Part shown: positions 11,374 through 57,888 of the stretch, one piece after another
Layout: each line of letters starts with the position of its first letter
Position numbering within the stretch: the first letter of the stretch is position 1
From: a virus
Virus record (IMG/VR): IMGVR_UViG_3300023491_000002
Strand: one strand, 5' to 3'
DNA: 64,000 nucleotides
The notes under the pieces: generated by a model
Told to the model about the DNA's origin: nothing
Seen by the model: only the letters and a program-made list of their open reading frames with translations
Database searches by the model: none
Program-made: the position numbers and the translations under genes

Positions 11374-11388
11374 TAAAATAGTGTCAGT

Positions 11389-24440: not shown

Positions 24441-25194
24441 TTCTAGTGTTGTTATTCATAGGATTATAGAAGATTATGATGTTCATTCTATGGACTTTAT
24501 GACTCGTATTCCTACTTGGATATGTGAAGCTCTTGCTGATTTAAATATTCAACAGCATCTTATTAATGTTGGTAAAGTTATCGACTTTGATGAGTATCGT
24601 TGTGAGATTCCAGAGGGTTGTGAGAATATACGTCTTGTTACAATTAATGGTAAACGTGCGGATTTTACTACTAATCCTGCTCCATTTGAGCATGATGATG
24701 GAAATTATATACCGCTCGCCATTTCATTCCCGATAGGAGTAAACCTTACAGAGAATGTCGTTTTTGACTTCATACAGACGATTTCCGGCAGTTTATATAC
24801 GTATTCGATTAATGGGTCGTATTTGCATTTGAATGTCAGAAAAGGCACGCTAGGTGTCTTATTTCACGGGTTGCCAATGACACTTGACGAGATTCTTAAA
24901 ATCAATGTTCCTCTTATACCTAATAATGATGTTCTTATTGATGCTCTAAAGAACTTTGTTATGATGCGTATTCTTCAACGTAATTACAGGCATCCTGTTT
25001 TAAATCTTAGAGATAGTAATCCTTATACTAATCCGGCACTTGCTTACGATAATGCTAAAATTAAAGTTCGTAATGCTTGTAATAGGCTTACTAAAGATAA
25101 ACGTGATGATTGTAGTAGGTCGTTATTAAACTTCTTAAATATGAAAAATCATTATGTGAACGGCTATGAAAGTAAACGCAGGTCTTTACCCTAA
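24412..25194 (+). CDS. Hypothetical protein.
   Basis: ORF of 260 aa, overlapping both neighbours. Confidence 0.6.
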   Translation: MNTLDQNLISSSVVIHRIIEDYDVHSMDFMTRIPTWICEALADLNIQQHLINVGKVIDFDEYRCEIPEGCENIRLVTINGKRADFTTNPAPFEHDDGNYIPLAISFPIGVNLTENVVFDFIQTISGSLYTYSINGSYLHLNVRKGTLGVLFHGLPMTLDEILKINVPLIPNNDVLIDALKNFVMMRILQRNYRHPVLNLRDSNPYTNPALAYDNAKIKVRNACNRLTKDKRDDCSRSLLNFLNMKNHYVNGYESKRRSLP

Positions 25195-29196: not shown

Positions 29197-29254
29197 GTTG
29201 CTCTTTAACGATCTCCAGACCCCGGTAGGGAAAGAGCTTGTGGTAAGGAGCAAC
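29197..29254 (+). repeat. GC-rich conserved element, copy B, in forward orientation. It is enclosed by the inverted repeat GTTGCTC...GAGCAAC.
   Basis: The core CCAGACCCCGGTAGGGAAAGAGCTTGTGGTAAGGAGCAAC lies at 29216-29254. It is 6 nt after the stop at 29191 and 20 nt before the ATG at 29275. There is no T-run. Confidence 0.55.
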
Positions 29255-29274
29255 ACTCTGCAAATACTATTAGT

Positions 29275-32190
29275 ATGCCAAATAAATATAAACGTACTAA
29301 GGTCGCTGATGATGCTCAAGCTAGACGTCTTCTTATTGATATTTTTACTAAGTATCATCAAAGTAAAGATATTAATAATAGATCTCTAGGTTTAGCTATT
29401 CAAGCTCTTGATAAAGAGAGTAATACTAAAGGTCTTATAGGTCGTCCTGAGATTCATAAGATTGATTCTCTTTATCAAGTCGGTGCACCTGCTCGTGAAA
29501 TTGTTAAGTATATAGCAGAGACTGGTGTTGGTACTAAAGGTTACAATACTAAAGTCTTTACACCTCAACAACTAGCTGATGATGGTGTTATTAAACGTAT
29601 GCGTGATTTTTACAATTATGCTAAGAAGCGTGGTCTTAATCATGCAGCCGCTACTGGTTTAATGTCTATGGTTTATGGTGAGACGTTAAATGATTCGATT
29701 GATGATCTATTTTCATTTAATAAAACTCAAAGAGCTACTGCTAAAGGTGATAATAGAATTGTTAATCATGGTTTATTTAGTTTTGAGAATCTACGTAAAT
29801 GGGATGATAAGAAAGATAAAGGTAAACCTAAAACTAATTGGGTTGAAGATCCTAATTATACTTATGGTAGTTATCAATCTTATCTTAAAGCTAATAAACG
29901 TAAAGATAGTTTAGAATCTCAATTTGATTATTATCTTGATACTTATTTACCTTCTAAAGATAGTAAATTTAGTACAGATAAAGTCAATGCTATGTCGGCT
30001 GAAGATGCTTCTGTTTACTTTATGAAGAATCAAAAACCGGATTTTACTGTTGATTATTCTACAACTAAAACGCTTAGAAGTCGTGCTAACTTCTTATTTA
30101 AATCTGAATTTAATAATGGTGGTATGATTAAAAACATTTCAACTCTTAAAGCTTACCCTCGTCGACGTAAATACGCTGGTGGAGGTGAAGTTGCATTTAA
30201 AGATAGATTCGGGGATGTTCAAGGTCATAGTTATGGAGTCGAGAAAGGTATTCAAGGAGCTTCTACAATGTCTGGTTTAAGTACCGGTGCTACTATTGGC
30301 GGGGGACTTGGGGCTGGAGTTACTGCTGCGGCTGCCGCTGGATCTTCTGCTTTAGCCGGTACAACTCTTGGAGCTTGGGCAGGTCCTATTGGTATGGCAG
30401 CAGGTGCTATTATTGGTGGTATTGTTGGACTGTTTGGAGGTCGTCGTAAGAAACGTAAGGCTAAAAAAGCTGCTGAAGAAGCTGATAGGCAACGTCAGAT
30501 TGTTGCAGGCAATGAACGTATTCTTCAAGATGAACTTAAATTATCCAACACTGCTCAACAAGAAGGTGCTCTTGATATATATGGTGACTCTAATATTACA
30601 GGTGTTACTGGTTATCAAGATGATGCTAGCTTCAATAGTGACTTAGTTCAACCTACTGTTCAAGGTACTCCATTTGGTGATGTTGATCCTAGTTCTGCTT
30701 TTGGTAGAATTGCCGCTCGTTGTGGTGGAAGACTTAAACGTAAACGTTGTGGTGGCAAAGCTAAACGTTATGCTGATGGTGGTATGATTAAAGAAACATC
30801 TTCTAATACCGCAGAAGTTAATGGTCCTTCTCATGAACAAGGTGGTGTTTCTTATGGACCTAATGCAGAAGTAGAAGGTGGTGAAGCTCTTATGACTGAC
30901 GCAGATAATGCTTATGTATTCTCTGATACTTTAAAGTATAATGGAACTACATTTGCTGATCTTGCTAAGCCTCTTATGAAACATAAAGGTTATCTTGAAA
31001 GTTCTCTTCCGGTCAAATCTATGATGCTTGGTAGAATGCTTTCTCTAACTGACCGTAGTACTTATGCAATTGATCGTAATACTAATGGACGTAACGCTGA
31101 GAAAGCTAATGCTGATCTTCAAAGAACTAATGCACAAATTGCTGCAATTCAAAATGAACTCGCACAACTCTATAATCTTCAAGAAAGTATGAAAGCTGAA
31201 TCTGGTATGGAAGCTGAACCTATTGAAGCACGTTGTGGCGGTAAAATTAGAAGATATTATGATGGTGGTCAAATTGTTGATATTCCTATTTCTACTTATG
31301 GTACTCAACGGGATAATAGCGGGAATTATGCTACGGGACAAGAAATAACTTTTACATCTAATGATAAAACTCAAATTCAAAATCCTTTAACTATTATTCA
31401 ACAAGGTTTGCGTTGTGGTGGTAGAACTCGCAAATATGCTGATGGTGGCTTTATAAGTCCGGGATTTGTTTCTGAAGTTGGTGGTAATCTTATTGGTGGT
31501 ATAAGTCAATTTATAACTAATAAAGGTTTAATTGATCGTATGGAAAGTATGCGAGTTCCTGAAATTCCTCTTATGGATCGTGTAGAACTAGAAACTGATA
31601 TAAATACTGACGCTGAAATTGGAGATATTAATAATACTGTTCGTAGTCTTGAAAAATATATTACAAGTAATAGTTCTAATTCTCAAGTTGCTCGTCAGTC
31701 TATATTGCTTGCTAGAACTCAAGGTTCTCGTATGCGTAGTAGAGTTAAACAAGATGAACATAATAAAGAAGTTGAGCTTCGTAATCGTTCTCGTATAGCT
31801 AACGCTGAAATTGCTGCTAGAAATAGTCAAATTAGAGCTGAGAATGAAGCTAATAAATTTAGTCATCAAATGGAAATTATTCAAAAAAGAAGTCAGAATA
31901 GTGCTATTTTATCTAATATGATTTCTAAAATTGGTAGTGCTATTAATTCTACTCAACAACTTAAATTTGATAAAGAAAATCTTCAAAATGAAATGCTTTC
32001 TAATGTAATTAAAGATCAAAATTCTTTATCTTTTGTTGCTCAACATTTTGATGATGAAACTCTAAAAAATTTATTAGGAAGCAATGGTCTAAAAGCTATT
32101 ATTTCTTATCGTAAAAGATTAAATACAAATACCAATCTTACAACAAAAAATAAAACATCTATTAGTAAAAATAGATATAAAGGTATTTGA
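29275..32190 (+). CDS. Virion-associated protein of 971 aa with a Gly-rich transmembrane-like segment and four basic Cys-Gly-Gly/Tyr-Ala-Asp-Gly-Gly repeats. A tape-measure, ejection or cell-wall-acting role is possible.
   Basis: GLSTGATIGGGLGAGVTAAAAAGSSALAGTTLGAWAGPIGMAAGAIIGGIVGLFGG followed by RRKKRKAKK. The repeats are PRRRKYAGGGEV, RCGGRLKRKRCGGKAKRYADGGMI, RCGGKIRRYYDGGQIV and RCGGRTRKYADGGFI. There is a weak SLT-like AATGLM segment near the N-terminus. Confidence 0.65.
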   Translation: MPNKYKRTKVADDAQARRLLIDIFTKYHQSKDINNRSLGLAIQALDKESNTKGLIGRPEIHKIDSLYQVGAPAREIVKYIAETGVGTKGYNTKVFTPQQLADDGVIKRMRDFYNYAKKRGLNHAAATGLMSMVYGETLNDSIDDLFSFNKTQRATAKGDNRIVNHGLFSFENLRKWDDKKDKGKPKTNWVEDPNYTYGSYQSYLKANKRKDSLESQFDYYLDTYLPSKDSKFSTDKVNAMSAEDASVYFMKNQKPDFTVDYSTTKTLRSRANFLFKSEFNNGGMIKNISTLKAYPRRRKYAGGGEVAFKDRFGDVQGHSYGVEKGIQGASTMSGLSTGATIGGGLGAGVTAAAAAGSSALAGTTLGAWAGPIGMAAGAIIGGIVGLFGGRRKKRKAKKAAEEADRQRQIVAGNERILQDELKLSNTAQQEGALDIYGDSNITGVTGYQDDASFNSDLVQPTVQGTPFGDVDPSSAFGRIAARCGGRLKRKRCGGKAKRYADGGMIKETSSNTAEVNGPSHEQGGVSYGPNAEVEGGEALMTDADNAYVFSDTLKYNGTTFADLAKPLMKHKGYLESSLPVKSMMLGRMLSLTDRSTYAIDRNTNGRNAEKANADLQRTNAQIAAIQNELAQLYNLQESMKAESGMEAEPIEARCGGKIRRYYDGGQIVDIPISTYGTQRDNSGNYATGQEITFTSNDKTQIQNPLTIIQQGLRCGGRTRKYADGGFISPGFVSEVGGNLIGGISQFITNKGLIDRMESMRVPEIPLMDRVELETDINTDAEIGDINNTVRSLEKYITSNSSNSQVARQSILLARTQGSRMRSRVKQDEHNKEVELRNRSRIANAEIAARNSQIRAENEANKFSHQMEIIQKRSQNSAILSNMISKIGSAINSTQQLKFDKENLQNEMLSNVIKDQNSLSFVAQHFDDETLKNLLGSNGLKAIISYRKRLNTNTNLTTKNKTSISKNRYKGI

Positions 32191-32301: not shown

Positions 32302-35244
32302 ATGGCAATTAGATTAAAATATGCAGATCTTACATATGTTTCAATACCTGATGCAAAACAATTAGATTTAAGTTCTTTGCGTTCTTTTGGACAAGCTTTT
32401 ACAGCTACTGCTGATAATCTGCAAGAACGTGCTATTCGTAATGAAAACGCATATAATGAAATGGCTATTAAGATGTCTGAATATAATGCGATTCAAGGTG
32501 CAGATGAAGAAGCTCTTGCAGGTAAAATTAATGAAACTCAAGAACACATTAAAGTTAAAGTTGATGAAGATGGAGGATGGTTCTTTGCTGATACAGCTGT
32601 TAGCGATGGTGCTCGTAGATTTTTAACTGATGAAGGAGTTAAAACTATTCTTGGTAATAAAACTCAATTTGATGCTATGATGCAAGCTAATGAACAATCT
32701 GACGCTTCAGAAGAATATAAAGCATTAAATAGAGCTATGATTCTTAAACGGTTTAATGATGCAGGAGGTAGTTTAGGAGGTAATGGTAAACAATCTATTA
32801 GTTCTTTTGGTACAGCTCTTGGTTCAGGTCATGATAGAGAAGCTTTACGTAAAGAAATGCTTGAATACTTTAAAGCTATGAAATCTGATGAAAAAGTTAT
32901 TTATAGTGAACAATTCCGTAAACAAGCTATAGATTTAATGAATAATCCTACAATTGATGCTGTTACTAAATCTACTCTAAAAACTTTATCTAATCCTACT
33001 CTTCATGGATTTCAAAGTTTTACTAAAACTATCGAAGGTATAGGAGATGATAGATTAATAAATGTTGCTAAAGCCATTGTATCTAACAATAGTAAATTTA
33101 AAAATGCTTTATTAAAAGAAGCAGAATTAAATCTATTTGCTCTAGAACAAAAAGGTATTACACCTAGTAATGCTGTAAAAGACAATATATATTCTACAGC
33201 TTTTACTGATTCTAATATTTTAAAAACTTTAGTAATAAATTCTCCTGAATATAAAAATGCTAATAGTAATGAAAAGATTGTATTGCTTAATGCTATAAAC
33301 AATCCTAATAGTATTTATATAAAAGAATTAATAGATAGAAATTATAGCTTTTTAAATCAAAATCCTAATGAAACTGAATCTGATTATGAAGCTAGATTAT
33401 CTAATTTTTATAAAGCTAATTATATAGATTCTGAAATATCTAATGTGGCTACTTATTTATTGCCTATGAGATATACTAAAGAGAAACTTGATGTAGATAA
33501 TAAATTCTTTGAAAGTCTATTTAATAAGCAACTAGAAAAGTCTGAAGATACTTCTAAAATACTTACTAGAGAAAGAGATGGTTTAGTTGGAACAATAGTT
33601 AATCTTCCTAGTATGACTTCTGAACTAGAAGCAAATCGTAAAACAAGATTACTTAATCAAACTTCTCAACATTCAAGAAATATATCTGAATTAGAAAGAT
33701 TTAATAACTATTTAGCTAAAAAGTCTACTAATGGAGAAAATATAACTAAAGAAGATGAAGATAAATTAAAAGCTCTTAACCTTAGAGTTCAAGAATCTCA
33801 AAGTATAATCAATAACATTCTTTCTGAATATGATGCTTATAAAGGTGGTATTCCAACAAATAAAGAAGATAAAGCAAATTTAAGCTTAGCACTTCAAAAG
33901 AGTATTAAAGAATATTATGATGTATTTAATCGTGTTGGAATTTTTGGAAGTTTAACTAATGTTATCAATGAAGAAACTTCTAACTTAGATGAAAATGGAA
34001 ATCCTATTAAAGGTACAGGCGTTGATCTTAGAGATGATGTTAAATTTAATGCAAATGATAAAACTCAGAAACATATAGATGAATATCTTCATATAAAAGA
34101 TATAAGTTATATATTAAGTAATTCAGATACTCCAGAGGAAGGTATTAAAAAAGCCACAAAGTTTATAAAAAATAGTAGCAAAACTAATCCTTATGTAAAA
34201 GAGTTTGCAGATAATATATCTAAAACATTTGGGGATATTAGTACTGGATTAACTTCTATTCTAATGGGTAATCTGATTGAAAACTATGGTAATGAAACTA
34301 ATATGATTCAGTCTAATCCTGGAGTTGTTATTGGTATATCCAAACCTACAGAAACAGGTATTGTAAGTACTGTTAGAAATAATATAGCTTATAAAATTGA
34401 AAATCATCCTGAAGCATTTACTATTATTGATAATCAATTGTTAGATGATGATGATTTAGAGTTAGATGCTGAATCCGTTGGTGTTCCTATAGATTTGAAT
34501 AATGAATCTCTTAGGAAATTCTTATATACTGAAGATAAAGGTACAGATAAGAACCCTAAATATTCTAAATCAGATATTACTTATGAACTTATGGAATTGA
34601 GTGATGGTCGTAAAGCACTTAATCTTATAAAGAATGTTCAAGGTTTTAATAATGTTAGACAGAAACTCACTATTGTTGCGAATAATGATGCTGATCAGAA
34701 TACTATAGATGAATTTGAATTAGCTATGCGTATGACTTCTGCATTCGATATGGCTGATAGACCTAATGCTGATACAAAATTTATATTTGATGCTATGTCT
34801 ACACATCATGGTGGAAGTTTAACTTTTGGTCCAGATCCTTCCAATGCTATTCAAATGAATGATGCTTCTGCATATAATATTGTTGAATATAATGGAAGAT
34901 ATTATAATAATGTTAAGTCGTTATTAAATGCTTTTGTTAAAAATCCTATAACAAATGTAGATAAAACTATATATCATAATAATTTTAGAATTACATTTAG
35001 TAAAGATTCAAATAATAATTTTACTACTCAAATTGATACGTATGATAGTACAACAAATTCATTTGAGCTTACAGATAAATTTATAAGTGATAATTCTGAA
35101 GACTTTATTAATAATACACAACGTAGATTAAGCGTTATATCATCTATATTAGATTATAAAGATGCTTATAGATTAACTAAAGAACAATTAGATAATCTTA
35201 CTAAGTTTAATGCTAATATGTCTACAGCTAATTTTAATTATTGA
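32302..35244 (+). CDS. Large hypothetical virion protein of 980 aa, Asn/Lys-rich.
   Basis: Long ORF in the tail/ejection block. Confidence 0.65.
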   Translation: MAIRLKYADLTYVSIPDAKQLDLSSLRSFGQAFTATADNLQERAIRNENAYNEMAIKMSEYNAIQGADEEALAGKINETQEHIKVKVDEDGGWFFADTAVSDGARRFLTDEGVKTILGNKTQFDAMMQANEQSDASEEYKALNRAMILKRFNDAGGSLGGNGKQSISSFGTALGSGHDREALRKEMLEYFKAMKSDEKVIYSEQFRKQAIDLMNNPTIDAVTKSTLKTLSNPTLHGFQSFTKTIEGIGDDRLINVAKAIVSNNSKFKNALLKEAELNLFALEQKGITPSNAVKDNIYSTAFTDSNILKTLVINSPEYKNANSNEKIVLLNAINNPNSIYIKELIDRNYSFLNQNPNETESDYEARLSNFYKANYIDSEISNVATYLLPMRYTKEKLDVDNKFFESLFNKQLEKSEDTSKILTRERDGLVGTIVNLPSMTSELEANRKTRLLNQTSQHSRNISELERFNNYLAKKSTNGENITKEDEDKLKALNLRVQESQSIINNILSEYDAYKGGIPTNKEDKANLSLALQKSIKEYYDVFNRVGIFGSLTNVINEETSNLDENGNPIKGTGVDLRDDVKFNANDKTQKHIDEYLHIKDISYILSNSDTPEEGIKKATKFIKNSSKTNPYVKEFADNISKTFGDISTGLTSILMGNLIENYGNETNMIQSNPGVVIGISKPTETGIVSTVRNNIAYKIENHPEAFTIIDNQLLDDDDLELDAESVGVPIDLNNESLRKFLYTEDKGTDKNPKYSKSDITYELMELSDGRKALNLIKNVQGFNNVRQKLTIVANNDADQNTIDEFELAMRMTSAFDMADRPNADTKFIFDAMSTHHGGSLTFGPDPSNAIQMNDASAYNIVEYNGRYYNNVKSLLNAFVKNPITNVDKTIYHNNFRITFSKDSNNNFTTQIDTYDSTTNSFELTDKFISDNSEDFINNTQRRLSVISSILDYKDAYRLTKEQLDNLTKFNANMSTANFNY

Positions 35245-35248
35245 TATT

Positions 35249-38200
35249 ATGCCTATTGATTTTGATAAATTAGAAAGCATACAAAGAAAATCTACTTATG
35301 CCCCTAAAGATAAGTATAAAAGATCTTCTTTTAATCCTAATGCTTATAGTATAGATAATAAATTACTACTCAATTTAAGAAAACATTCTGGAAATAGTCA
35401 AAATATAGTTCCCGGTAATGTTAATGCTTATATTGAAGCTAGAGCTAGAAATCAATCTACTTGGGATCGTATTGGTAACTCTCTTGTTCAAACTGTTGGA
35501 GAAATAATTGGTGGTACAATTGAAAGTGCAGGTTCTATACTTGCACTTCCCTCTAAACTCATAGATAGTGATGAAGCTTATACTCGTAATTTTTTAGAAA
35601 GACTAGGTAATTCCATTAATGAAGGTACTAGAGAAGCATTTCCTATTTATATGACTGAACAAGCTCAAACGGGTAATTTATTAGATCGCATGAAAGGTGG
35701 TGGTTATTGGGCTTCAATAGTTCCATCTATTTTAGGTAGTGCTGCTAGTATAATGCTTCCAGCTCGTGGAGCTTCGTTATTATTAGGTAAAGCTTTTAGA
35801 AGTGCTGTTAATCTAGGAAGTAAATCTAAATATATTAAAGATTTATTTAAGTTGGGTACAAAACTACAAAAAGCTAAAGCTCTAAACAGAGCTAATAAAA
35901 TAGCAGATATTTATGGTTCTGCTGTTATAGGACGTATTCTAGATTCATCTCGTGAAGCTTATGGTACTTATGAACAAGAACGTGAATGGTTTCTTAATAA
36001 TTATAAGAACTATGTTGAACGTGATGAAAATGGTAATGCTATTCTTAAAGCTCCGGGATTAGAAGAAGTTCCTCTAAATGATACTAATATTGAAAGTATT
36101 GCTGATAGATATGCAGATAATGCAGCTTCTAAAGGTTATTGGAGATCTATGTCTAATATAGCTTATGACGTAGTTGAATGGATGAATATCTTAGGTACTG
36201 CTAAAACTCTTACTAAAGCTACTAGAGATAACATTCGTAAAGCTATGGCAACTGGTGATAAATTTGCTATAGTTCGTACATTAAATGCTATACCCAATGC
36301 TGATAAAGGTCAAATTCTTAGAGCTATTGGAGGTTTCGCTGGAGGTTCTCTTGCTGAAATGGCAGATGAAATGACTATGAGTATTGCGATGCAAGAAGGT
36401 ACTCATGCAGCTCGTAAAGATTTTGGTTTACTTTCTGATACTGACGCTCTTACTGATTTTAGCATGAGAGTTAGTAGTTATCTTAAAGATCCTGATATTT
36501 GGACTGAAGGTATTGGAGGTCTTTTAGGTGGTGCTGGTATGCAAGCAATAATGCCATTTATTGAAACTAAGATCAATAAACGTGGTATTGAAAGAGAACA
36601 TGAATATCTTAAAGGTATTGAACGTGCTACAGAAGCTATGCGTTCAGGTCTTGATGGTATTGTTGAATCTCTTGCAGAAGGTGATATTGTTGGTGCTAAA
36701 CTGAAAGAACAAGAAGCTATTCTTAATCAAGTTGCAGCTAATAGTCTTGATGGTTCACTTGAGTTCTATAAAGAGATGCTTAGAAATATGAGTGCTTCTC
36801 TTAAAGAAATTCAATCTATTAAATATAGAAAAGATAGAGGTGAAGCTATTAGTGCCGAAGAACAAATTGCACTTGATAAAGGTGAATCTTTACTTGCAAA
36901 TGCTGATTACTTTGAACAGACTCTTAATAAGATTGAAGCTGTTGAAGATATTTACAATAAACATTTCGATGCAGTCAATGGCACTACCGACAAAAATCTC
37001 TATGAATATCAACGTCGTATTGCTACTCTTGAAGCTCAAAAAAGACTTAATGAACTAGAACTCGAAGCTATTACAGCTAATCCTGCTGAATATCAAAAGC
37101 GTGCTGCTGAATCTAAAGAGTATCTTAGTAATTATGTTGATTCTAAATATACAGACGATAATATTCGTATAGCTAAGAAAGCTGATATAAATACTTATGC
37201 TGAAAATAATGCAACTCTTGAAGATGCTAAAGCTGCATTAAGTGTTTACGATAAAATGATTGCTAGTCTTAAGAAACAAATAAGTGAACTTGAAAATGCA
37301 ATCACTAATGCTCCTAAAGATGCTACTGCTGAACAATTATTAGGTCTTAAAATAGCTCTTAAAGGTGCTAATAGTAAACTTGAATCTTACAATAAAACTC
37401 TTAGTGATATTAGTAATATTCGAGATACAGCGACTAAAAACATTGAAGCTCTTAATTTAAATAAAGATGATAAAGAGGCGGCTCAACAAGCTAGAACTCT
37501 TTTATCTAATCTTACTAATCCGGAAGAAGCTAAACGATTCTATGAAAATAGAAGAACTGCTATTGATGCTGAACTTGATTATTATCGTAATGGTAATGGA
37601 TTTGAAGATATTAAAGATCAAATAAAATTATATGAAGATGAAATCAAAGCTTCTACTGATAAAGATCTAACTGATGAACTTAATACGTATCAAACTTCTG
37701 AAGCTTTACAAGCAGATGAATCAAAGTTCTCTAATTCAGACACAAGAAAAGCCGTATATAATGCCCGTCTTGCTAGACTGCAAAAACAAGAATCTGACAC
37801 TAAAGCTGCTAATGCTCGTAGAGAAGCTGCACTCAAAGCAGAACAAGAACGTCAAGTGAGACAACAAAAAGAACGTGATGCGCTTGCAACAGAAGAAGAT
37901 TCAAATGCTGCACCGATAGGTAGTGGTACATTCGGTAGATCTTATAGAGAATTTGAAGGTGTTAAACCTTTATCCAATGAAGCTTCTAGTCTCTATAATG
38001 CACTTATGTCTGAATCTCAAGTTACAGATTCACCTCTTGCTAACGTTATTGAGAATAGACGTAAAAGCAAATCTCTTACTTCTAAAGATGCAATGCTTCT
38101 TGAAGAAATTAAAGAATTCAATGATGCTACTAATAGAGCTTTAGATAATTCATTTGATACTCTTACGACTACAAATCTTAAATGGATTGTTACTCGTATT

Positions 38201-49800: not shown

Positions 49801-52800
49801 TATTCCTATTAGACTTAATTTCAGTGATATTAAAGGTTATAGTGAAGATATTCCTAATAAAGCTGAATGGGCTAGAAAGCAGATTCTTAAATGCTTTAAA
49901 GATGAAAGATTATCTAATGGTGAACATAGTGTTCAAGTAGATGTAGCTTCTAATAGCGTTACAGTTTGGTGTCGTTCTCTTTATAATAATGATTATGGTA
50001 CTTGGACTGATATAAATGGTGAGCCTATATCTGCACAGCGTTCTGAATTAACATCTCATATTCTTGATGCTGTTAAAGATAATCTTTGGTTTAATATGAA
50101 TACATATACTATTGGTAATACCGCTTTACTTGCTTCATTCCCCATAAGTTGGAATGCTAATCTTAAAGCTAGCAATGCTAAAGTTGAAGGTACTAATAGA
50201 TATATTTATTCTGCTCTTATTGAATCTCAGCAAATCATTACTGATTTTGTTACGAATATTTCAATTAAGTCTATTGAAAACTCTAATAACTTCACTAATG
50301 TTAGTTTCCATAATGTACGCAGTGATTATATGATTGACGCTGTTGCTACTATGAGTAAACTTCTTACTGATAAAGGTAATAGTCTTAAAGCTTTTGCTAA
50401 GAGTTATTTTGAAACTACACAAGATAATGTAGGTCTTAAAGATGTTATTACTAAACTTAGTAAATATCTTGCACAAGAAGATCTTAGTAATATGGCGATT
50501 GCGAAAGCTCACGAACATGGTCATACAATAAACATGAAACAAACTCATGCTATGGCTAGATTTATTGAAGCTCTTGCAAATGAAGTTGGTGTTACTGCAT
50601 ACGAAGTAGATAGTAAGATTCAGAATAAAGCTAAAACTATTACTGAACTTGATTCTCTATTTAAAGAAGATCAAAACTATAAACATACAGTTGAAGATTT
50701 TGAAGCTTATGCTAATTATCTTAATCGACAACTTGAAGTTTTAGATTACTATATGTACGTTGATAAAGCTGTAAATGCTATGAAACGTGCACAAGGATGT
50801 CTTATTACTGAAAAGAAAGGTGCTGGTCCTAAGACTTCTGAAAGTAATAAGCTCTTTGAATCTATTGCAATGCTTGAGCATAATGTTAATACTCTTATTC
50901 AGAATGCTAAAGATGCAGGTATTCCTGAAAGTATGCGCAATGAATTACTCTATAAATACTATAGTGTAAATGCAATTACTGATAAAGGTGAAGTCATTGA
51001 TAATTGGTTGCTTAAAGCTAATGATTATCTTCTTGAAAATAAGGATTCTGATGGTAAAGTAATTCAGCTTGATAAACCTAAATCCCCTTTTAGAATTGGT
51101 GATAAATCAATGATTGAAGCTATATTTCCGTCAATTGTTAATACTAATTGGGAAATTGAAGATAGTGCTTATCCTATTCTTCAACAACAATTGTATTCTA
51201 CTAATGAGATCTCTGTTAATATGTTTCATGATCTCTTCATTAGTGAGAATCCTGCTTTCAAAGATAAAATTAATTATTGTATGGCTAAGCTTAAACAGAT
51301 TAATAATCCTGAACTTAGAGAAGCTCTGATTAATTATGCTATTATTGATAAAGTTAGACAAATGCCTTTCTTTAATGATGACAGTAAAAGTCCGGAAACA
51401 CTTCTTGCTGAACGTGCTAAGTTATTAGGATGTGTTAATATTGTTAAAGACGAACAAACTAATGAATTTAAATTCAAAGGTGCTGTTGATTTAGCTCTTA
51501 CTAATGTTAATCTTAAAAATTGGTACAATGAACTTGAAAGTAGAAATTATACTCATGATGAAAAAATAGCTATGTTTAAAGAATTACCTGTTAGTATTCA
51601 ATTAGCTATGGTTAAGAATACACTTACTGATGGTAGATATGTTACTGTAAATGGTCAATATGTTACTAAAGGTAATCTTAGACTTAATCCTAATCATATT
51701 CTTTCATTGCTTTCTCCTAATACTATGGAGAGTACAATTGTAAGAACTGGATATATTTCTATTTCAACTAAGGAAAGTGATGATATTGATTTTACTAGAG
51801 ACACATTCTTTCAGCTTATTAATAGTCCTGATGAATATTGTCGTATTCTTGGTGAGAACTTAGTTAAATATGCATTCTGGGTTAATAAACTTGATTTTGG
51901 TCGTAATCTTTCTAAGTATATTCCTATTGATCTTTATGGTAAATTCAAAACTAAAGATGGTAACTATGTAAGTGCTTATAAGACTTCATGGGGAGATCAA
52001 TTTGATTCTATTAGTTTTGAATCTATCGACGGTACTAGTGACAGAGATATTAGATTAGCTATGAAAGAACAAGGTATTACTGATGGTGGTAGTAACTTCC
52101 GTTCAGAAAATGCTGCTCTTTATAACTATGCTGAAGCTCTTTATGCTAGTCAAGCGAATAAAGATAATATTCTTCTTAGAACTAACGAAGAACTTGATGT
52201 TTTTATCGAAGCTTTTGTTCGTGCTAATTCTGAGAATACTCGTATCGTTAAATATATGAAACCTGAATATGTTTATGATACTAATTGTAAGAAGAGTAAA
52301 GTTAAAGATCAAACTCCAACTTTTACTAAGATTACTAAGAGTAATTTCTCTAGAGCTGTATTTGATCTTAAAGGTGCAGTAGCTAACGAATGGCATAAAG
52401 ATGTTGATCTTGAAACTCGTAAGTATATAGAAGATGCTCTTAATAGTGTTATTAAAAATGCTATTGGTATTAAACATAATGATATTTGGAACATCGTTGG
52501 TCAAATGATCTTTGAACCTACTAGATATGTAAATAATTCTAGTTATGCTGATGATGTATATCTTAAGACTCGTGAAAAGGTAATTGATAAAGAACTTACT
52601 GGTCTTAAAAAGACTTACAAAGCTCAATTACCTGAGGGTATGCTTTATAAACGTTTTGATATTAATGATTGTACGTTCTATTATCCTATTAATAAAACGT
52701 TTAAATCTGAATATCTTACTACAGCTAATGATTATTATAAATATAACATTGAAGCTCAAGAAATATACGAGAAACTTGCTACTATTTTGAGTAAGTTCTA

Positions 52801-55800
52801 TCGTAGATTTAATTCATCTGTTACTAATGTAGAAACTCATAACAGTCTTACATCAGCTATAGACGCTGCTACAAGTAACGCTGATTATACAATTTATATT
52901 GGTAATGAATCTGATACATATAGAGGTCTTATTGATACTTCTGCTATTACTACTATCCCATTGCAGGCAGCTATCAATGACACTTTTGATACCGATACAC
53001 TGCCCTCGGAAATCCAAAATTTGGCACTTGTCGGCAACGGAGAGACGCTTTCTCAATTGAAACGATTAACAATACAAGGACAACTTTTTAAGGGCTTAGA
53101 CAGGCTTATTCAAAGACTAAATCCAGCTAATGTTAGTGCGATTCAAGCTGATGGTATCAATGATATTATAGTTGATTACATTGGTATTAAAAAAGATCTT
53201 AATACTACTGTTCATACTATTAATAGCTCAACTCCTAAGTTCTCTAAAGTCTTAGATACAGAGTTCATAGCTGATGATAATACTGGAATTAGTATGTCAA
53301 ACCTTGAATTTATTAATACTCTTTATGAAGTTGAAAAGACTGCTATCGGTAATACTAAACTTCTTAGAGATGAAATGAATCTCATGGGTGAACTAAATAC
53401 TAATCTTGATAAGCTTGATGCTAAAGCTCAAAGTGAAATTGCTAGACTTAGTAGAGATATGAATAGTCTTCCTAATTATGTTGAAACATTCAAGTATAAT
53501 GCTAATATACTAGAGAATGTTAAAGATATGATTAAAGCTATTCAAATGCCAATGGATACTGATACTATATTTAAGCTTTGGACTAAAGGTACTGTTGCTG
53601 ATCGTAAACAATGGGTTACTGATCTGAATAAACTCAGTAGTCTTATAAAGTCTCAAGCTTATATTGAAGATCTAAATCCTATTGACGAAGCTAGTTTTGA
53701 AAATGCTTCTCAAAATACTAAAGATAGTATTGCAGAATTTAATGAAGCTCTTCTTAATCTTAAAGGTTTATATGCTGAGATTATGCCTCTTAAACGTAAA
53801 GTTGTTGATGCTTCTAAGATTTACTTTGGTTTCTTAATCAATCAAAGAAGTCATAATCCTGCTTTCAATACTAAGTTTAAGTATATTCAAGATAAGCTTG
53901 TTGAAAACGGTTTTAATGCTGATGAAATTGGCGTTTATACTATAAATGAAAGAGATATTCAAGAGAATATTCGTCGTATGCTCGGTGATAATCTTGATTT
54001 ATCTACTGTTATTAAATGGTTAGATTCTGCTGCTCAAAGTGGTATTCCAATCATTGATACAGTTCTTTCTCAATATGAGTTCCATACTCTTAATGCTACT
54101 GAATTTGCTTTCAATAATAATAAGCGTACATTCGCATTATTTAAGAAGTATGATAGATTCTATAAAGAAAAGTCTAATGGTAAACCTGATATGACTTTTT
54201 CTCAATCTCGTTCTAATGACTTTAGAGCTAGATTCATTAATGAAGCTAATTGTCAACTTGTTACACCGTTTGATATGACTAAAGCCAACTATGATTATCA
54301 AATTGGTAAAGCTCGTGAATACGATGATTATATTAAGAGAAGATCTGAGTTAGAACCTCTATTAGAATCTGACGATTTTGCTACAGTTAAGAAAGCCCAA
54401 GATGCTCTTGCTAAACTTGAGAAAGAACATAAGAAAAGAGTTCATGCTGTAGGTAAAACTATATACTCTACTATGAATGTTTCAATACCTGCTAAAATTA
54501 TTAAAGGTAGACTTGAACTTGATCTTGAAGATGTATATAATAATCCTAAGAAGTATTTTTCTAATCTTAGTGCCGAAGAAGCATACTATTATACTAAGCT
54601 AATTGAACGTGTCTATAAATCTAAGATTCGTAAGAAATTTGCTGAAGCTAATAATATTGAACTTAGTGTTAGAGGTCAAACTACTAATCGAGTTCTTCTT
54701 CAAGTTCAAACTGCAAAAGCTGATTATAGAGACGCTAAGTTTAGTAAACTTACTCATTCTGATATTGATATGATAGTTGAAATGCAAGAGATGTTTGCAG
54801 AACTTAATGATGTTGCAATGCCTAACACTGTTAGATCTGCTAGTTTCTTCCCGACTTTCATATCTGCTAATCATGTGAATGCTCTTAAACAACTTGTTGG
54901 TTATCACGAATTACAAGAAGATGATTATAAAAATACACTTAGTGGAGAGACTCAATACTATCTTAAAGCTACTGCACTTAATCGTCCAGAAGTTATAGGT
55001 CGTATTAAGTATGATCTCTACGCTATTACAAATAAAGAAGCTTATGATGCTCTAATTGAAAAAGCTAATAAAATAACTAAACATAGAGGTTATTATAAAC
55101 CTATTACTTCTATTGCAGATATTATCGAATATAATAAAGAGTTATCTGATAAACAATTAGGTGATGTTAGAGATCGTATGAACTTTGACCCTATGAATGT
55201 TACTCTTAATTATATTAATCAGCTTAAACGTATTAAAGTTAATCGTGACTTTGAGCCCGAACTTAATCTTCTGCAAACTATTCTTGCTATGCCTGAGTTC
55301 CAAGCTCGTGAATATGGTGTTAAGAGTAAGAATGTTATTAATAAGATTCTATCTCTTTATACTCATAAAACTGAAGTTGTTTCTCGTAAAGGTAAAGAAA
55401 CAGAAGCTTTTGATAGATTTAAGAAATTCTATGATGCTTTTGAAGGTAAGAATCGTATTAATACATTAACTGATCAACTTCTTAATATACTTCATACAGT
55501 TAATAGTAAATCTCTTATGTGGATGAACTTAACTGCTGCTTTAAAGAATATTGGTACAGGTCATATCAATATTGTAAGCGAAGCAACTGGTGGTGAATTT
55601 ACTACTAAAGCTACACTTCTTAAAGCTCATGAAATGTATATTAAAGCTCTTCCATCATTATGGGCATCACTTGGTGAATATACTTGTAATAATCTTGATG
55701 CAGCTTTAATGAAGTTAGCTGGTAATATTTTTGAAGATCATATTGAAGCTGGAGTAGATACTAAGACTAATATTGTTTCTCTTGGTATGTCTAAATGGGA

Positions 55801-57112
55801 TAATGTGATGTTTGCTCCTAATACTATTGGTGAGCATTATTTGCAATTCGCTACTTTCTTGTCAGCTATGCAAACTCATCGCATTGTTGCAGGTACTATT
55901 ATGAATTATGATCAATTCGTATTCTCACTTAGAGAACGTCTCTTTAGAGATATGGTTGATGATGAAACTTATACTAAGTATAAAGCATATAAAGATAAAC
56001 AAGAATCTGTTAAAGGCAATAACGTTGAATTTATAGATTATCTTTCTCGATTTATTGCTTATCGTGCTAATAACTTTACTAACGAATGGAAATCTAATTA
56101 CGCTAAGGCTTATAAAGAAGGTCTTAAGAATGCTAGAGTTGAGTTTGAAAAGAATCAAGTTATATATGATGCTTTTGAACTTAAAGATGGTATCGCTTCA
56201 ATTAAAGCTGAAAGTAATATAACTCTTGAAGATTTTGCTAAGTTCTTAGGTAAAGTTAAAGGTATTAATCATAGTTTGCATGGTATTTACAATACTTTCG
56301 ATAAATCTATGTTATCTGGTAAGATGTGGGGAGAGGTGATACTTCAATTCCGTAAATGGCTTCGTCCTAACTTTATTCGATATTGGGGTAAACGTGTAGG
56401 TAAAATTGTATTTGATGAACGTCTTGAATCTTATAGAAGTGGTGCTTACATGGATATGATAAATTTTCTATTATCTAATGGCAAAAGTGCTTATAGAGAA
56501 ACTATTGATAAAGCTATAGAAAATGACGAAGATATTGATTTTGCTACTAAAGCTAAAGCTATATTCAATGGGTTCTGCGGTTTATTATATTGGTTCAAAG
56601 ATATAAACTTTAGATATAATACTCTACCTCAAGCTCAAAAGGCTAATATAAAAAGAGCCATGTTTAATTTTACAACTCTTGTTGGTTTATCTCTTGTAGC
56701 TGCTAGTCTATATGCTGCAAAAGATGATGACGATGAACTTGATGAAAATCGATTCTTTGCTCTTGCTTGTTATACTATTTATGGTGTTCAAACTGAACTT
56801 TATGAAACTTCACCTTGGGGTCTTTATTCATTCTATAAACGTACTATGGAGGCACCTATACCTTTTGAAACAAGTATGTCTAATGTTCTTAATCTTGCTT
56901 ATTGGACACTTATTGCTCCAATGATTGTAGATGATGAAGAAATGCTTTATGATAGAGGTACATATAAAGATGAAGATAAACGTTGGATTGCATTTAAGAA
57001 AACTATTCCGTTATTCAATCAATACAACAAGATGTTCTATTTACCAAAGAACAATACATACTATATGCAACAGAACCCAATATTACAGATGATAGTTGAA
57101 CTAAATAAGTAA
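43862..57112 (+). CDS. Giant virion protein of 4416 aa; a candidate virion-packaged RNA polymerase or cargo protein.
   Basis: It is the last gene of the structural block, where crAss-like phages keep their giant RNAP-containing proteins. HLVTRTGWDYDIDSIYLS (nt about 48940-48965) resembles the RdRP-type xSGxDxDGDxxY catalytic context but has Ile in place of Gly. No other recognisable motif. Confidence 0.7.
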   Translation: MGLDCNIIPQIKVGDSYTDSKCFQDLWDRAKKLYPNNPIKARAVAKANYEALKSTSFVSEYGDWVLLRAVQNAGLTDAQFATFQSVYGNNIERLTKSITVPLNEQGEPEIRSFHKYTVAKKAQVLYDNDYPFIADSEQMYLNRIFAAIAFRLEPQFKNLTYKDFKNGVTIRSLIATVLRQYAQNDNPDVGYLGFAAQYNNRLDELEAAGVADEIIDNDPLLISYESKMNNLLRLADQLDNLDDQGIWQSFINYYKAEFMADINDFDVEDYMTMGEINGASMTDEQNINKSWNRSLQFKVDRKNTASSRFKRMLTEMIYNNQSNLFATLEDSQFNGTASYYNKYGLAMPFDINVLWNSLIDATRYAANKEELINSLKVTSESVYNGQLQPIIDQIEIFPNDDASTIERKEIFYNMYMASVDMATTVVTQSETMSYNMSENDYNLAYSVKESNRQSFATTNIYNQYRNILSDKFQHVGSRAAVQYDINAIYKTGKSITDKVNTLLYKSNNVGINWSPNTIFNYLSIKFSVPFDVIKALYHDGNDDNKVNKLVYQKIETELVNIDGVFDKILNQIKANVTDKQSEKAKDRQSRRIKRLFYEGFKAGDEIDSVVDDMRGRINILATVGGCDPAIKVDLSYINVQGEQEYTPEFYNHITSMLQGIVNRIGEVNVELMKYRFNDFLKSKGTKYHPLIWNLGNGMGGDGKGFFNFRKDENDNAILDENGYRILDAVNPVNVEAVKAFQYARFNGMSNRDQGIRTPYVDMHDYIWTRDVILRQFQGRYSLPSADASRIYEFVTGNTLTEPNATKRSLPFKLINTDGTFVNYRIARTNDLESNYLFQRVKDTFRTEMEMMLEARRLLFDYDANTQILSIKKEYLRPEDDVRQEFNFLDSDERSRMISDHNGDAEAAFRAFYESRAFDKDIFEGLQAPIFWDGKALLKNGKPTGNIFKFGNLNFRYTDANGNTTVRSIIDYIEDAFNELHPNAASSFGKFEPFMICGEDFNTAYGDVIDNAYMRMFVDRINSHLQDAFDYLAPVRDNIQSTLTYKNQLKALNETLPEDYKNDRYWGYVVSNLLCNHYVADIAIQEIFTGYTFEFKNALDWAKRASQGVRPGSTTRSNTTYTQIVVSDVNLKDNMLQKMLEPFANDKATSDELNRRFGSKTITTADAFNVITQDECIRRFKAMGDYDSFTLPSGRTLADIVADEDTPISPSDYARIVEQLKYYFYKRGKSTLNNRFNTDIVFSHQDKNSTLVIFKRMYKGTGYETLYDWMKQEGIDSINFESGHKVGGMPKVQLFDISRDIAVDSKGFPILDANGKYTYTNGTKATLNIQYNEATKRLELKGYPKGIEDFKQTLSHSNLYIQQQVPSHLMDEENKIGTQLQKRILDNLVFNGDYTIGGTVRKGKTGDYSYDGSGAFEYYQMLLSANANDEMYRLLADWGAITNDGNIKYTSIETDGGLRNVIGVDLDLVLADLRRYFNETEIDRNFIKATVVVNGKPFIPFYHPTIKSRIESVLLARITRRVTNLKLKGAHVTIQPDTFLQPAAVTLDKKGIIKGTQANIQRMYLEGQIKFSDDYWQSRAELNEDGTIKRDANGTPIIKKNADFKLQSEYWETKADGTKVFHPAEIILNNWDSRFKLDANGNLDLNSVPENLRTMFGIRIPTEGHQSMFVAKVVGVLNNGASQAIVPEHLVTRTGWDYDIDSIYLSMKEFDVIDGQYVEYTKNDSDTYKRQSLEYVSDVYFSKTKDALKNAYLKEKIPLINELADINAKINAQASIDDSVIRRLKQEYKNLQQQRFYSKNVSERNALAKAMELKSAEIEAYNAANMNPAISDAELKALYDTKASIYSKLKKAKSDYDAKYEKFIKETVTPKWNSLNEYRRMPRAAKDNAIIDTWIGIHSDIKNTLNKEKPNEFDHSKAAAAYINRIAGYDNSMMNQHFLIDQIKIRNINNNIAVLKGQSIAADNALSIMGFTQTMLSDEFAIPIRLNFSDIKGYSEDIPNKAEWARKQILKCFKDERLSNGEHSVQVDVASNSVTVWCRSLYNNDYGTWTDINGEPISAQRSELTSHILDAVKDNLWFNMNTYTIGNTALLASFPISWNANLKASNAKVEGTNRYIYSALIESQQIITDFVTNISIKSIENSNNFTNVSFHNVRSDYMIDAVATMSKLLTDKGNSLKAFAKSYFETTQDNVGLKDVITKLSKYLAQEDLSNMAIAKAHEHGHTINMKQTHAMARFIEALANEVGVTAYEVDSKIQNKAKTITELDSLFKEDQNYKHTVEDFEAYANYLNRQLEVLDYYMYVDKAVNAMKRAQGCLITEKKGAGPKTSESNKLFESIAMLEHNVNTLIQNAKDAGIPESMRNELLYKYYSVNAITDKGEVIDNWLLKANDYLLENKDSDGKVIQLDKPKSPFRIGDKSMIEAIFPSIVNTNWEIEDSAYPILQQQLYSTNEISVNMFHDLFISENPAFKDKINYCMAKLKQINNPELREALINYAIIDKVRQMPFFNDDSKSPETLLAERAKLLGCVNIVKDEQTNEFKFKGAVDLALTNVNLKNWYNELESRNYTHDEKIAMFKELPVSIQLAMVKNTLTDGRYVTVNGQYVTKGNLRLNPNHILSLLSPNTMESTIVRTGYISISTKESDDIDFTRDTFFQLINSPDEYCRILGENLVKYAFWVNKLDFGRNLSKYIPIDLYGKFKTKDGNYVSAYKTSWGDQFDSISFESIDGTSDRDIRLAMKEQGITDGGSNFRSENAALYNYAEALYASQANKDNILLRTNEELDVFIEAFVRANSENTRIVKYMKPEYVYDTNCKKSKVKDQTPTFTKITKSNFSRAVFDLKGAVANEWHKDVDLETRKYIEDALNSVIKNAIGIKHNDIWNIVGQMIFEPTRYVNNSSYADDVYLKTREKVIDKELTGLKKTYKAQLPEGMLYKRFDINDCTFYYPINKTFKSEYLTTANDYYKYNIEAQEIYEKLATILSKFYRRFNSSVTNVETHNSLTSAIDAATSNADYTIYIGNESDTYRGLIDTSAITTIPLQAAINDTFDTDTLPSEIQNLALVGNGETLSQLKRLTIQGQLFKGLDRLIQRLNPANVSAIQADGINDIIVDYIGIKKDLNTTVHTINSSTPKFSKVLDTEFIADDNTGISMSNLEFINTLYEVEKTAIGNTKLLRDEMNLMGELNTNLDKLDAKAQSEIARLSRDMNSLPNYVETFKYNANILENVKDMIKAIQMPMDTDTIFKLWTKGTVADRKQWVTDLNKLSSLIKSQAYIEDLNPIDEASFENASQNTKDSIAEFNEALLNLKGLYAEIMPLKRKVVDASKIYFGFLINQRSHNPAFNTKFKYIQDKLVENGFNADEIGVYTINERDIQENIRRMLGDNLDLSTVIKWLDSAAQSGIPIIDTVLSQYEFHTLNATEFAFNNNKRTFALFKKYDRFYKEKSNGKPDMTFSQSRSNDFRARFINEANCQLVTPFDMTKANYDYQIGKAREYDDYIKRRSELEPLLESDDFATVKKAQDALAKLEKEHKKRVHAVGKTIYSTMNVSIPAKIIKGRLELDLEDVYNNPKKYFSNLSAEEAYYYTKLIERVYKSKIRKKFAEANNIELSVRGQTTNRVLLQVQTAKADYRDAKFSKLTHSDIDMIVEMQEMFAELNDVAMPNTVRSASFFPTFISANHVNALKQLVGYHELQEDDYKNTLSGETQYYLKATALNRPEVIGRIKYDLYAITNKEAYDALIEKANKITKHRGYYKPITSIADIIEYNKELSDKQLGDVRDRMNFDPMNVTLNYINQLKRIKVNRDFEPELNLLQTILAMPEFQAREYGVKSKNVINKILSLYTHKTEVVSRKGKETEAFDRFKKFYDAFEGKNRINTLTDQLLNILHTVNSKSLMWMNLTAALKNIGTGHINIVSEATGGEFTTKATLLKAHEMYIKALPSLWASLGEYTCNNLDAALMKLAGNIFEDHIEAGVDTKTNIVSLGMSKWDNVMFAPNTIGEHYLQFATFLSAMQTHRIVAGTIMNYDQFVFSLRERLFRDMVDDETYTKYKAYKDKQESVKGNNVEFIDYLSRFIAYRANNFTNEWKSNYAKAYKEGLKNARVEFEKNQVIYDAFELKDGIASIKAESNITLEDFAKFLGKVKGINHSLHGIYNTFDKSMLSGKMWGEVILQFRKWLRPNFIRYWGKRVGKIVFDERLESYRSGAYMDMINFLLSNGKSAYRETIDKAIENDEDIDFATKAKAIFNGFCGLLYWFKDINFRYNTLPQAQKANIKRAMFNFTTLVGLSLVAASLYAAKDDDDELDENRFFALACYTIYGVQTELYETSPWGLYSFYKRTMEAPIPFETSMSNVLNLAYWTLIAPMIVDDEEMLYDRGTYKDEDKRWIAFKKTIPLFNQYNKMFYLPKNNTYYMQQNPILQMIVELNK

Positions 57113-57137
57113 GGACTTCTGTTGGACTTAAAAAAAT

Positions 57138-57175
57138 GAGAGAGGGCTTTCAGATAATACTGTCAGTCCTCTCTC
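57138..57175. terminator. Hairpin GAGAGAGG-N22-CCTCTCTC, 26 nt after the stop of the 4416-aa gene. It is preceded by an A-run and followed by TTCTTG, so it could work as a bidirectional terminator.
   Basis: Seen in the sequence. On the - strand the hairpin is followed by TTTTTTT. Confidence 0.45.
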
Positions 57176-57220
57176 TTCTTGTATCTATACTACTCATACT
57201 CCTGCTCGTGTCATTGCAAA

Positions 57221-57269
57221 CGCTCCGCCCCGTTCCACATCTATCCCTCTACCGGGGTCTGCAATGCTC
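57221..57269 (-). repeat. GC-rich conserved element, copy D, in reverse orientation, in the convergent intergenic region.
   Basis: Its reverse complement GAGCATTGCAGACCCCGGTAGAGGGATAGATGTGGAACGGGGCGGAGCG aligns with the other copies. Confidence 0.55.
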
Positions 57270-57458
57270 CACAATGCCATTTTTGCCACCTGCGGGCTTC
57301 ATATATTGATTATCTATTGGCAGACGATAACTAGTTCATATTATAAAAGAAAGTGTCTCTATGAGGCTCTATTGAAGTTATCATTATCAAACATTTGCAT
57401 TATTATCACGGCTTATGATAACGATGCAATTTAATTATAATCATAGTAGCATTAGTAA

Positions 57459-57505
57459 CACTTTCCAGACCCCAGTAGGGAACATGGTGTGGTCAGGAGC
57501 GGAAC
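57459..57505 (+). repeat. GC-rich conserved element, copy C, in forward orientation, in the convergent intergenic region.
   Basis: ACACTTTCCAGACCCCAGTAGGGAACATGGTGTGGTCAGGAGCGGAAC. Confidence 0.55.
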
Positions 57506-57538
57506 TAAGCATAGCACTTGTAACAGCACTATGCTTAG
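57506..57538. terminator. Perfect 10-bp hairpin CTAAGCATAG-N13-CTATGCTTAG, immediately 3' of the - strand gene that ends at 57544.
   Basis: Seen in the sequence and directly abutting copy C. Confidence 0.5.
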
Positions 57539-57543
57539 AAGTA

Positions 57544-57888
57544 TTAATAGTATCCCTCACTTTCACCACATTCACTCAGTCCACCAAAGCTAACTTTATT
57601 CACATTAACAATGAAAGGTAGAATCTTCTTAATTTGAGTAGAAGTAACAACAAAACTATTGTTAGTACCCGGATGCCTCATAACATACTTAATACTACCA
57701 ATATAAAGATTAGGAGATAGACGCTTATGCTTTTGCTTTTCAGCAGCGGTCATAGTAGCGAATCTATACACTTTATGCAAAACAGACCAATTACCAGTAA
57801 ATTCTTGAATAAGAGTTCCATTTGCATCACGAGTAATCACATTCCCATCAACTTCAATATAACACGTATGTGTTTTAGTTTCTTCCAT
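57544..57888 (-). CDS. Hypothetical protein, 114 aa.
   Basis: ORF; its start overlaps the upstream gene's stop by 1 nt (57888). Confidence 0.55.
   Translation of the reverse strand: MEETKTHTCYIEVDGNVITRDANGTLIQEFTGNWSVLHKVYRFATMTAAEKQKHKRLSPNLYIGSIKYVMRHPGTNNSFVVTSTQIKKILPFIVNVNKVSFGGLSECGESEGYY

Follow-up and report, generated by a model that had tools for sequence, protein, structure and literature searches.

The window analysed here, a stretch of 64,000 nt from IMG/VR virus record IMGVR_UViG_3300023491_000002, is part of a crAss-like phage genome and shows two convergent gene blocks separated by a gap of 430 nt (57113-57543), which is the junction described in this report. The + block spans positions 1-57112 and closes with two giant open reading frames (ORFs) of 2877 aa (35210-43843) and 4416 aa, the latter showing blastn matches to genes annotated as 'putative RNAP subunit' (RNA polymerase, RNAP) in Carjivirus records and being related to the RNAP-subunit fusion protein of crAssphage. 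The - block begins at 57544 and encodes DUF932, Sipho_Gp157, ThyX, DUF3310, MazG and Tad2-like proteins; no family match was found in PHROG or Pfam for the 114-aa product of its last gene. The gap separates the late block, which contains the structural and RNAP genes, from the replication and nucleotide-metabolism block. Its limits, the two facing stop codons, are confirmed by the ORF list as an earlier note on this DNA had given them, and all the features reported there (two hairpins, and between them two opposed copies of a GC-rich element, D and C, separated by a spacer) were found, far beyond what is expected by chance (Table 1). The junction was compared with relatives, designated below by L numbers. 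These include, from IMG/VR, numerous genomes belonging to the species of the window as well as a sister group (identity 77-81% for DUF932, 83-84% for a 298-aa protein, about 91% for the portal), and deeper lineages from Logan assemblies, with DUF932 identities of 75, 68, 65, 63 and 62%.

Hairpin 1 begins 26 nt past the stop codon of the + gene, at the place proposed in the earlier note (57138-57175), and shows 11+3 bp with -22.9 kcal/mol on the + strand (z = -4.8; none of 200 shuffles was as stable). Its fold on the - strand has -20 kcal/mol with a U7 run behind it, and the tail on its 3' side on the plus strand is UUCUUGUAUCU in the window and UUUUUGU in relatives. The hairpin is kept through compensatory base changes in lineages at 62-99% protein identity: across seven lineages 90.8% of the cells are paired (44-66% in slid-partner controls), seven of the 14 pairs are altered on both sides, and the covariation score is 0.388 versus 0.211 in shuffles, with none of 500 shuffles reaching the observed values. 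By its build of A-run, stem and T-run, hairpin 1 is read as a putative bidirectional intrinsic terminator. Hairpin 2 has the perfect 10-bp arms that had been announced for 57506-57538, located at 57505-57514 and 57529-57538. On the - strand four more pairs, two of them G.U, extend it to a 14-bp stem of -20 kcal/mol (z = -4.8), versus only -13.3 kcal/mol on the + strand, an asymmetry compatible with a function in the RNA of the - gene which precedes it. In close relatives the stem is invariant and the variation is confined to the loop. The hairpin is absent in L219, while L011 and L220 have unrelated hairpins in its place, the one in L220 carrying a U-tract and being picked up by the terminator scan. 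In L011, a close relative, an insertion of about 640 nt (11354-11998) lies where hairpin 2 sits; it carries another terminator-like hairpin and also brings an 81-aa ORF (11747-11992) that ends with its stop codon directly against element C.

The order of the parts (stop codon of the giant gene, A-run, hairpin 1 and T-run, D-like copy in -, spacer, C-like copy in +, and end of the - block) is conserved in all lineages but L222, where it is altered, with one additional small ORF. D and C are present at the junction in all the relatives examined that span it, although both copies of L222 are degenerate (E = 0.33 or below the threshold). Additional small ORFs separate C from the DUF932 operon in L011, L221 and L223. 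In Carjivirus communis (BK010471.1), the homologous gp43/gp44 junction (29273-29357) contains one textbook bidirectional terminator, which lies, like hairpin 1, between the replication block and the gene for the giant RNAP and is likewise built of A-run, GC-rich stem-loop and T-run. The junction described here differs in its length, 430 nt versus 85 nt, and in having a second hairpin, two GC-rich elements and a partly conserved spacer; no element was detected in the 3.5 kb scanned around the gp43/gp44 junction. The comparison with the relatives and with C. communis supports a role of the gap in termination, and shows the elements and the spacer to be lineage-specific additions. Since hairpin 1 co-varies, hairpin 2 is exchanged for non-homologous hairpins and C. 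communis has a terminator at the equivalent junction, the hairpins very probably serve termination; the bidirectional termination zone, one of several options in the earlier note, is supported by stable hairpins situated 6-26 nt after each convergent gene. Hairpin 1 would end the rightward transcripts and, on the other strand with its U7, the leftward ones, and hairpin 2 would end the transcript of the minus block, both steps being well supported. Terminators of this kind are ordinary, but they are useful in showing where, in an uncultured crAss-like lineage, the two gene blocks have their 3' ends.

Table 1. Position of the junction features, the element copies and the genes mentioned in the text, in the coordinates of the window.
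Feature	Position	Strand	Location and remarks	Basis
Hairpin 1 with flanks	57130-57186	both	A7 57130-57136, stem-loop 57138-57175, T-rich tail 57176-57186	
Element D	57213-57276 (core 57220-57269)	-	intergenic	nhmmer E = 1.2e-13 in 64 kb
Left spacer half, conserved	57296-57377		blocks 57296-57327 (GCTTCATATATTGATTATCTATTGGCAGACGA) and 57346-57377	lineage alignment
Right spacer half, variable	57378-57451		replaced or deleted in relatives	
Element C	57452-57513 (core 57457-57507)	+	intergenic	nhmmer E = 2e-16 in 64 kb
Hairpin 2, candidate terminator of the - block	57505-57538	-	starts 6 nt after stop codon	
Element copy	5766-5828	-	inside portal gene (4856-7243), translated ..AAPYHSLPSTGVLKA..	
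Element copy	18637-18699	+	intergenic, 11 nt after stop codon; 7-bp outer stem, then T6	
Element copy	23155-23219	-	inside 246-aa ORF 22798-23538; orthologous position occupied in sister group	
Element copy	29200-29265	+	intergenic; fills gap between ORFs 25166-29191 and 29275-32190	
Element copy	38727-38791	-	inside 2877-aa ORF (35210-43843)	
Element copy	42759-42822	+	inside 2877-aa ORF, sense orientation	
Portal gene	4856-7243			PHROG 6547 match
Last + gene, 4416-aa ORF	43862-57112	+	stop at 57112	ORF list; blastn
Last - gene, 114 aa	57544-57888	-	stop at 57544	ORF list

Elements D and C belong to a larger family. The window has eight copies and not four: a profile built from seven copies retrieved the eighth at 42766-42815 (first-round hidden Markov model E = 7.3e-08), which was then confirmed, and CAGACCCCRGTAG with up to two mismatches gives eight matches versus 0.53 expected. 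All of them exceed the 99th GC percentile of 50-nt windows. D lies in reverse and C in forward orientation, pointing their CAGACCCC ends inward as described; this opposed orientation stands, but the idea of a local organised unit does not, the pair being two members of a genome-wide family that are 62% identical. This identity, and the fact that each of the two is nearer to other copies, rule out a recent inverted duplication or a pair of co-evolving partners. Beyond the window, relatives show one copy about 9 kb into the - block, at least two further on, and a second inverted pair in the divergent switch region (L185:8687-8750 in + and 8871-8935 in -, about 190 bp apart, with the 3' ends inward), so that a genome of about 95 kb contains at least 13 copies, in both orientations. 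Intergenic copies mostly begin about 0-12 nt from a stop codon and occupy short gaps, and four of the eight window copies are within ORFs, three antisense and one sense. The window copies alternate strictly in orientation (-,+,-,+,-,+,-,+; chance 2/256); this alternation fails once the copies outside the window are counted, and it is treated as unexplained or due to chance.

The element shows three conserved blocks, (T)YTGYAG-ACCCC-R-GTAG-RG (core CCCCRGTAG), TGTGG and G.G(C/A)GGA(A/G)C, and its ends resemble a direct repeat, GGAAC-TYTGYAG ... GGAAC-TYTGY. RNAalifold and single folds of both strands gave only a 4-bp CCCC/GGGG pairing in common, the single folds varying by copy and not being significant. 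The intergenic copies at 18637 and 29200 show long enclosing stems (-30 kcal/mol), and the former has a compensatory change, GTTCTGC/GCAGAAC, in one relative (L131); other copies lack such stems, and a structured-RNA model of the element was dropped since the outer stems occur at some intergenic copies only. The copy within the portal gene encodes ..PYHSLPSTGVL.. by CCG TAC CAC TCC TTG CCC TCT ACC GGG GTC CTC, codons which each account for 3-16% of the usage of their family in this genome, except TCT (46%), and the joint probability of this codon choice given the peptide is about 2.5e-13. The sister group preserves its core, CCC TCT ACC GGG GT, and L135, a relative at about 75-80%, nearly does so, though synonymous sites elsewhere in the portal gene differ by 21-32%. 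The peptide itself varies between lineages, and distant portals have a different, longer loop there. In the lineage with the P0011-type portal this copy is missing. The peptide shared by coding copies, ..APxxSLPxTGV.. (LPXTG-like), was rejected as a protein motif, since the same DNA is also found non-coding, reversed and in other frames, and the AAGGAG block was ruled out as a Shine-Dalgarno sequence, its distance to the start codon at 29275 being 24 nt. Sequence variation halts at the edges of the element. The family is thus shown to be constrained at the nucleotide level, dispersed and positionally conserved.

Element positions and orientations are identical in the sister group. A site between the Tad2-like and MazG genes contains an element in L219-L221 and none in the window (15-nt gap, 61741-61755) or in L218. 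In L220 (6939-7583) the Tad2-like and MazG genes are fused in one ORF which reads through the element at 7196-7250, and in L219 they are separate genes with the element between them; the fusion shows one way in which an intergenic copy becomes coding. The element also has genome-specific variants, GGAGCGACAY in L219 and L220 and GCGGTCAAGAGCG in L221, and the paralogues within each of L219, L220 and L221 are 75% alike, versus 59.5% for orthologues across the deep split. This greater likeness within a genome suggests that the copies co-evolve with a trans-acting reader or undergo gene conversion. Among the genomes whose neighbouring 298-aa protein is 99-100% identical to that of the window, some (L108, L116 and L119) contain, near 16077-16141 (orthologous to 29200-29265), the sister-group version of the element together with its downstream flank, which suggests that recombination breakpoints may lie at or beside elements. 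In pattern scans of IMG/VR and of GTDB genomes the element turned up in one phage lineage and nowhere else, and thus no host-derived source was seen. Two of the sequences exposed by the pattern are crAss-like phages of the same lineage binned into bacterial metagenome-assembled genomes: L135 (JAAUYS010000080.1, 94,331 bp; GTDB 'Clostridia bacterium') and L136-L138 (CAJUAL010000008.1, 94,313 bp; 'uncultured Vampirovibrio sp.'). The elements are thus a practical marker of the lineage, which reveals mis-binned phage genomes. No description of such a repeat family was found in searches of the literature on crAss-like phages; for phi14:2, no common motif was found for the early transcripts.

Because it is the sequence and not the fold which is conserved, the orientation is mixed and copies are found in coding and non-coding DNA, the elements are tentatively proposed to be sites at which a trans-acting factor, probably a protein of the phage, recognises double-stranded DNA. 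Their location at the borders of genes, with an inverted pair in each of the two strand-switch regions, would agree with a boundary or roadblock mechanism. The elements would mark gene and block boundaries as roadblocks or insulators against transcription entering the opposing block, and the inverted pair at each strand-switch region would block traffic from both sides. Taken as a whole, the explanation of the 430-nt gap as a transcription-termination zone, with D and C as likely DNA sites between the hairpins, is given a probability of about 0.5. Several points weigh against it. As regards termination, the consensus terminator scan, which permits only loops of 3-8 nt, gave no site in the window, and the tail of hairpin 2 in the window is UUCCGCUCCU, not a U-tract. 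The conserved left half of the spacer is accounted for neither by the terminators nor by the elements. As regards the elements, the binding protein is hypothetical and no candidate was found; their orientation relative to transcription is nine antisense to four sense, which is not significant (binomial p about 0.13), so that a polar roadblock is hypothetical too. The number of synonymous changes in the portal copy is not measurably below that of the rest of the gene, the numbers being small, and the similarity within genomes could stem from gene conversion rather than from co-evolution with a factor.

A wider version of this proposal, considered doubtful, is that the elements are cis sites of a lineage-specific system of genome-wide control or architecture, in which a factor co-evolving with at least 13 sites, and bound to them at gene borders, within genes and at the inverted pairs of both strand switches, would insulate or silence whole blocks. 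If true, such a system would be a long-site analogue of the mycobacteriophage stoperators, possibly tied to the lifestyle, persistent or like that of a plasmid, which has been proposed for crAssphage, and, if they bind a protein, the elements would give a direct handle on the partitioning of the early and late programmes, or on silencing, in abundant gut phages. The element family is a more interesting result than the terminators, given its conservation at the nucleotide level, its presence in coding and non-coding DNA and its bracketing of both strand switches.

The occupancy of the Tad2-like/MazG site, filled in L219-L221 and empty in the window and L218, would also suit a selfish, non-autonomous miniature repeat that spread over the genome, at times in frame into genes, with D and C as passengers at a junction of two terminators. 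Such a repeat could be similar to the repetitive extragenic palindromic (REP) sequences, the miniature inverted-repeat transposable elements (MITEs), the Rickettsia palindromic elements (RPEs) or the GC clusters. The direct-repeat-like flanks resemble a target duplication, the portal copy lies within a loop that is variable and clade-specific, the family is confined to one lineage, and its GC-rich copies in an AT-rich genome are like the GC clusters of yeast mitochondria. However, the elements show neither terminal inverted repeats nor a consistent palindrome, no pair of empty and filled sites with a clean duplication was recovered, and no transposase was seen, though none was searched for. 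Moreover, their positions are stable in the sister group, the pair at the junction persists in lineages with protein identity as low as 62%, the core blocks and the rare codons show no decay in spite of the divergence of the surrounding synonymous sites, and the presence of pairs at both strand-switch regions is unlike random insertion. A selfish origin is therefore rated as rather unlikely.

In enterobacteria, REP sequences and bacterial interspersed mosaic elements (BIMEs) are short, GC-rich, dispersed repeats which are found in both orientations, often as inverted pairs at operon ends or between convergent genes, and the roles proposed for them are protection of mRNA 3' ends, attenuation, and gyrase or IHF binding. 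The elements share with them the short length, the GC-rich and dispersed character, both orientations and the inverted pairs between convergent genes. Unlike them, they are not palindromic and lack the conserved fold of the REP stem-loop, half of the window copies are intragenic and translated rather than extragenic, the replicon is a phage, and no RAYT-like gene was noted. Stoperators, the binding sites of the L5 gp71 repressor in cluster A mycobacteriophages, are asymmetric sites of 13 bp, strictly oriented with transcription, with many copies in short intergenic gaps and in coding sequence, where the bound protein forms a roadblock to transcription. The elements are likewise many asymmetric, sequence-specific sites over a phage genome, intergenic and coding, but they are about 45-55 bp long with three conserved blocks, their orientation (9 to 4) is not strict, and no repressor was identified. 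Rickettsia palindromic elements and yeast mitochondrial GC clusters are GC-rich mini-elements of AT-rich genomes, located between genes and in frame within them, palindromic or mobile, and variable in occupancy. The elements resemble them in GC content and in their location between and in frame within genes, and differ from them in the positional stability of their copies in the sister lineage and in the deeper conservation of the junction pair. The element fails, or leaves open, defining features of all these families.

The spacer between D and C had been described as an AT-rich core with no ORF. Its GC content of 27-38% compares with a window mean of 33% (sd 7%, 50-nt windows), so it is AT-rich only relative to the elements, and a 56-aa ORF with an ATG start exists at 57264-57434. 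By eye, the equivalent frame has stop codons in L219, and the spacer shows indels between relatives; by these comparisons the ORF appears not to be kept. The left half is recognisable, in two blocks, down to the lineages at 62% protein identity, for which the view of the whole core as unconstrained was dropped; it shows no kept ORF, convincing promoter or known motif. The right half has three length variants in close relatives and other sequence in deeper ones. A sigma-70-like match, TTGGCA-16-TATTAT (57317-57344 in +, 10/12), lies within the conserved left half; it was rejected as a promoter, since such matches are not more frequent than in shuffles and it is weak, shifted or missing in L219 and L223. 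A look by eye gave no convincing match in the spacer to Bacteroidota-type, sigma-54 or dif-like motifs.

That match, in a block conserved across lineages, is the starting point of another explanation, in which a promoter in the spacer gives rise to a rightward transcript, a short non-coding or antisense RNA that crosses the variable region and C as far as hairpin 2 and is antisense to the 3' end of the minus block, with a mirror RNA passing through D to hairpin 1 and the elements as RNA domains. It would agree with the fact that, in the orientation of each element, a hairpin comes next (C is directly followed by hairpin 2, and D by hairpin 1 and U7 on the minus strand), and with the long stems of the copies at 18637 and 29200. 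The shuffle-level frequency of the promoter-like match and its absence or shift in L219 and L223 argue against it, as does the different promoter consensus used by the Bacteroidota hosts. The stretch that would form the body of the RNA (57378-57451) shows the lowest conservation, the elements lack a consistent or significant fold, and four copies lie inside genes, three antisense and one sense. Rfam 15 gave no match in the window at gathering scores, with only chance-level miRNA and snoRNA matches in 57100-57560, and ARAGORN found no tRNA or tmRNA in the window. A small RNA at this locus is considered improbable.

GC skew is positive in the + block and negative in the - block, and the cumulative skew has its maximum at about 57 kb. 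The skew check proposed in the earlier note thus gives a sign change at the junction, but one which coincides exactly with the coding-strand switch and cannot separate replication from transcription; the same caveat is made in PMC10983915. A replication terminus, with D and C as opposed polar fork barriers (Ter-like) or as part of a multimer-resolution site of a circular, plasmid-like form, would be in line with this peak, with the inverted pair of asymmetric sites, and with the origin of C. communis, which is predicted at the other, divergent end, coverage declining away from it (PMC10983915). Unlike a Tus/Ter fork trap, where one arm needs one orientation, the + arm contains five minus and three plus copies, a second element pair lies at the presumed origin end, and no dif-like XerC/D site was seen in the spacer by eye, no formal search having been made. 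The terminus is accordingly rated as very unlikely. The junction as a replication origin or packaging (pac/cos) site is extremely unlikely: its general look, a non-coding stretch with repeats between gene blocks, is all that suggests it, while the spacer GC equals the genome mean, no iterons were found, close relatives have lost or exchanged the right half of the spacer, and the junction of C. communis is only an 85-nt terminator. With average GC, an unconserved right half and element orientations that do not suit a fork trap, the origin or terminus-like site named among the options of the earlier note finds no support.

The divergent switch region (L185:7704-10001) contains 2.3 kb of non-coding DNA about 5 kb to the left of window position 1. 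In addition to the element pair, it shows other repeat families, such as GTTACTCTAAGTATTAC in three to four copies, and a polypurine tract of about 60 nt at 9173-9235. Having many repeat families and this tract, it is far more origin- or terminus-like than the junction, and it is the better candidate to contain the origin, the termini of the genome or the promoters of the blocks, in accordance with the origin prediction for C. communis (PMC10983915). In L149 (1-577), this region shows a frame open for about 190 codons, whose lone in-frame TAG lies exactly on the invariant GTAG of the element; this could be chance, a small gene or a recoding event. Finally, the ORFs of 2877 and 4416 aa are adjacent and the first of them carries two opposed element copies, which might mark former gene boundaries of a fusion protein.

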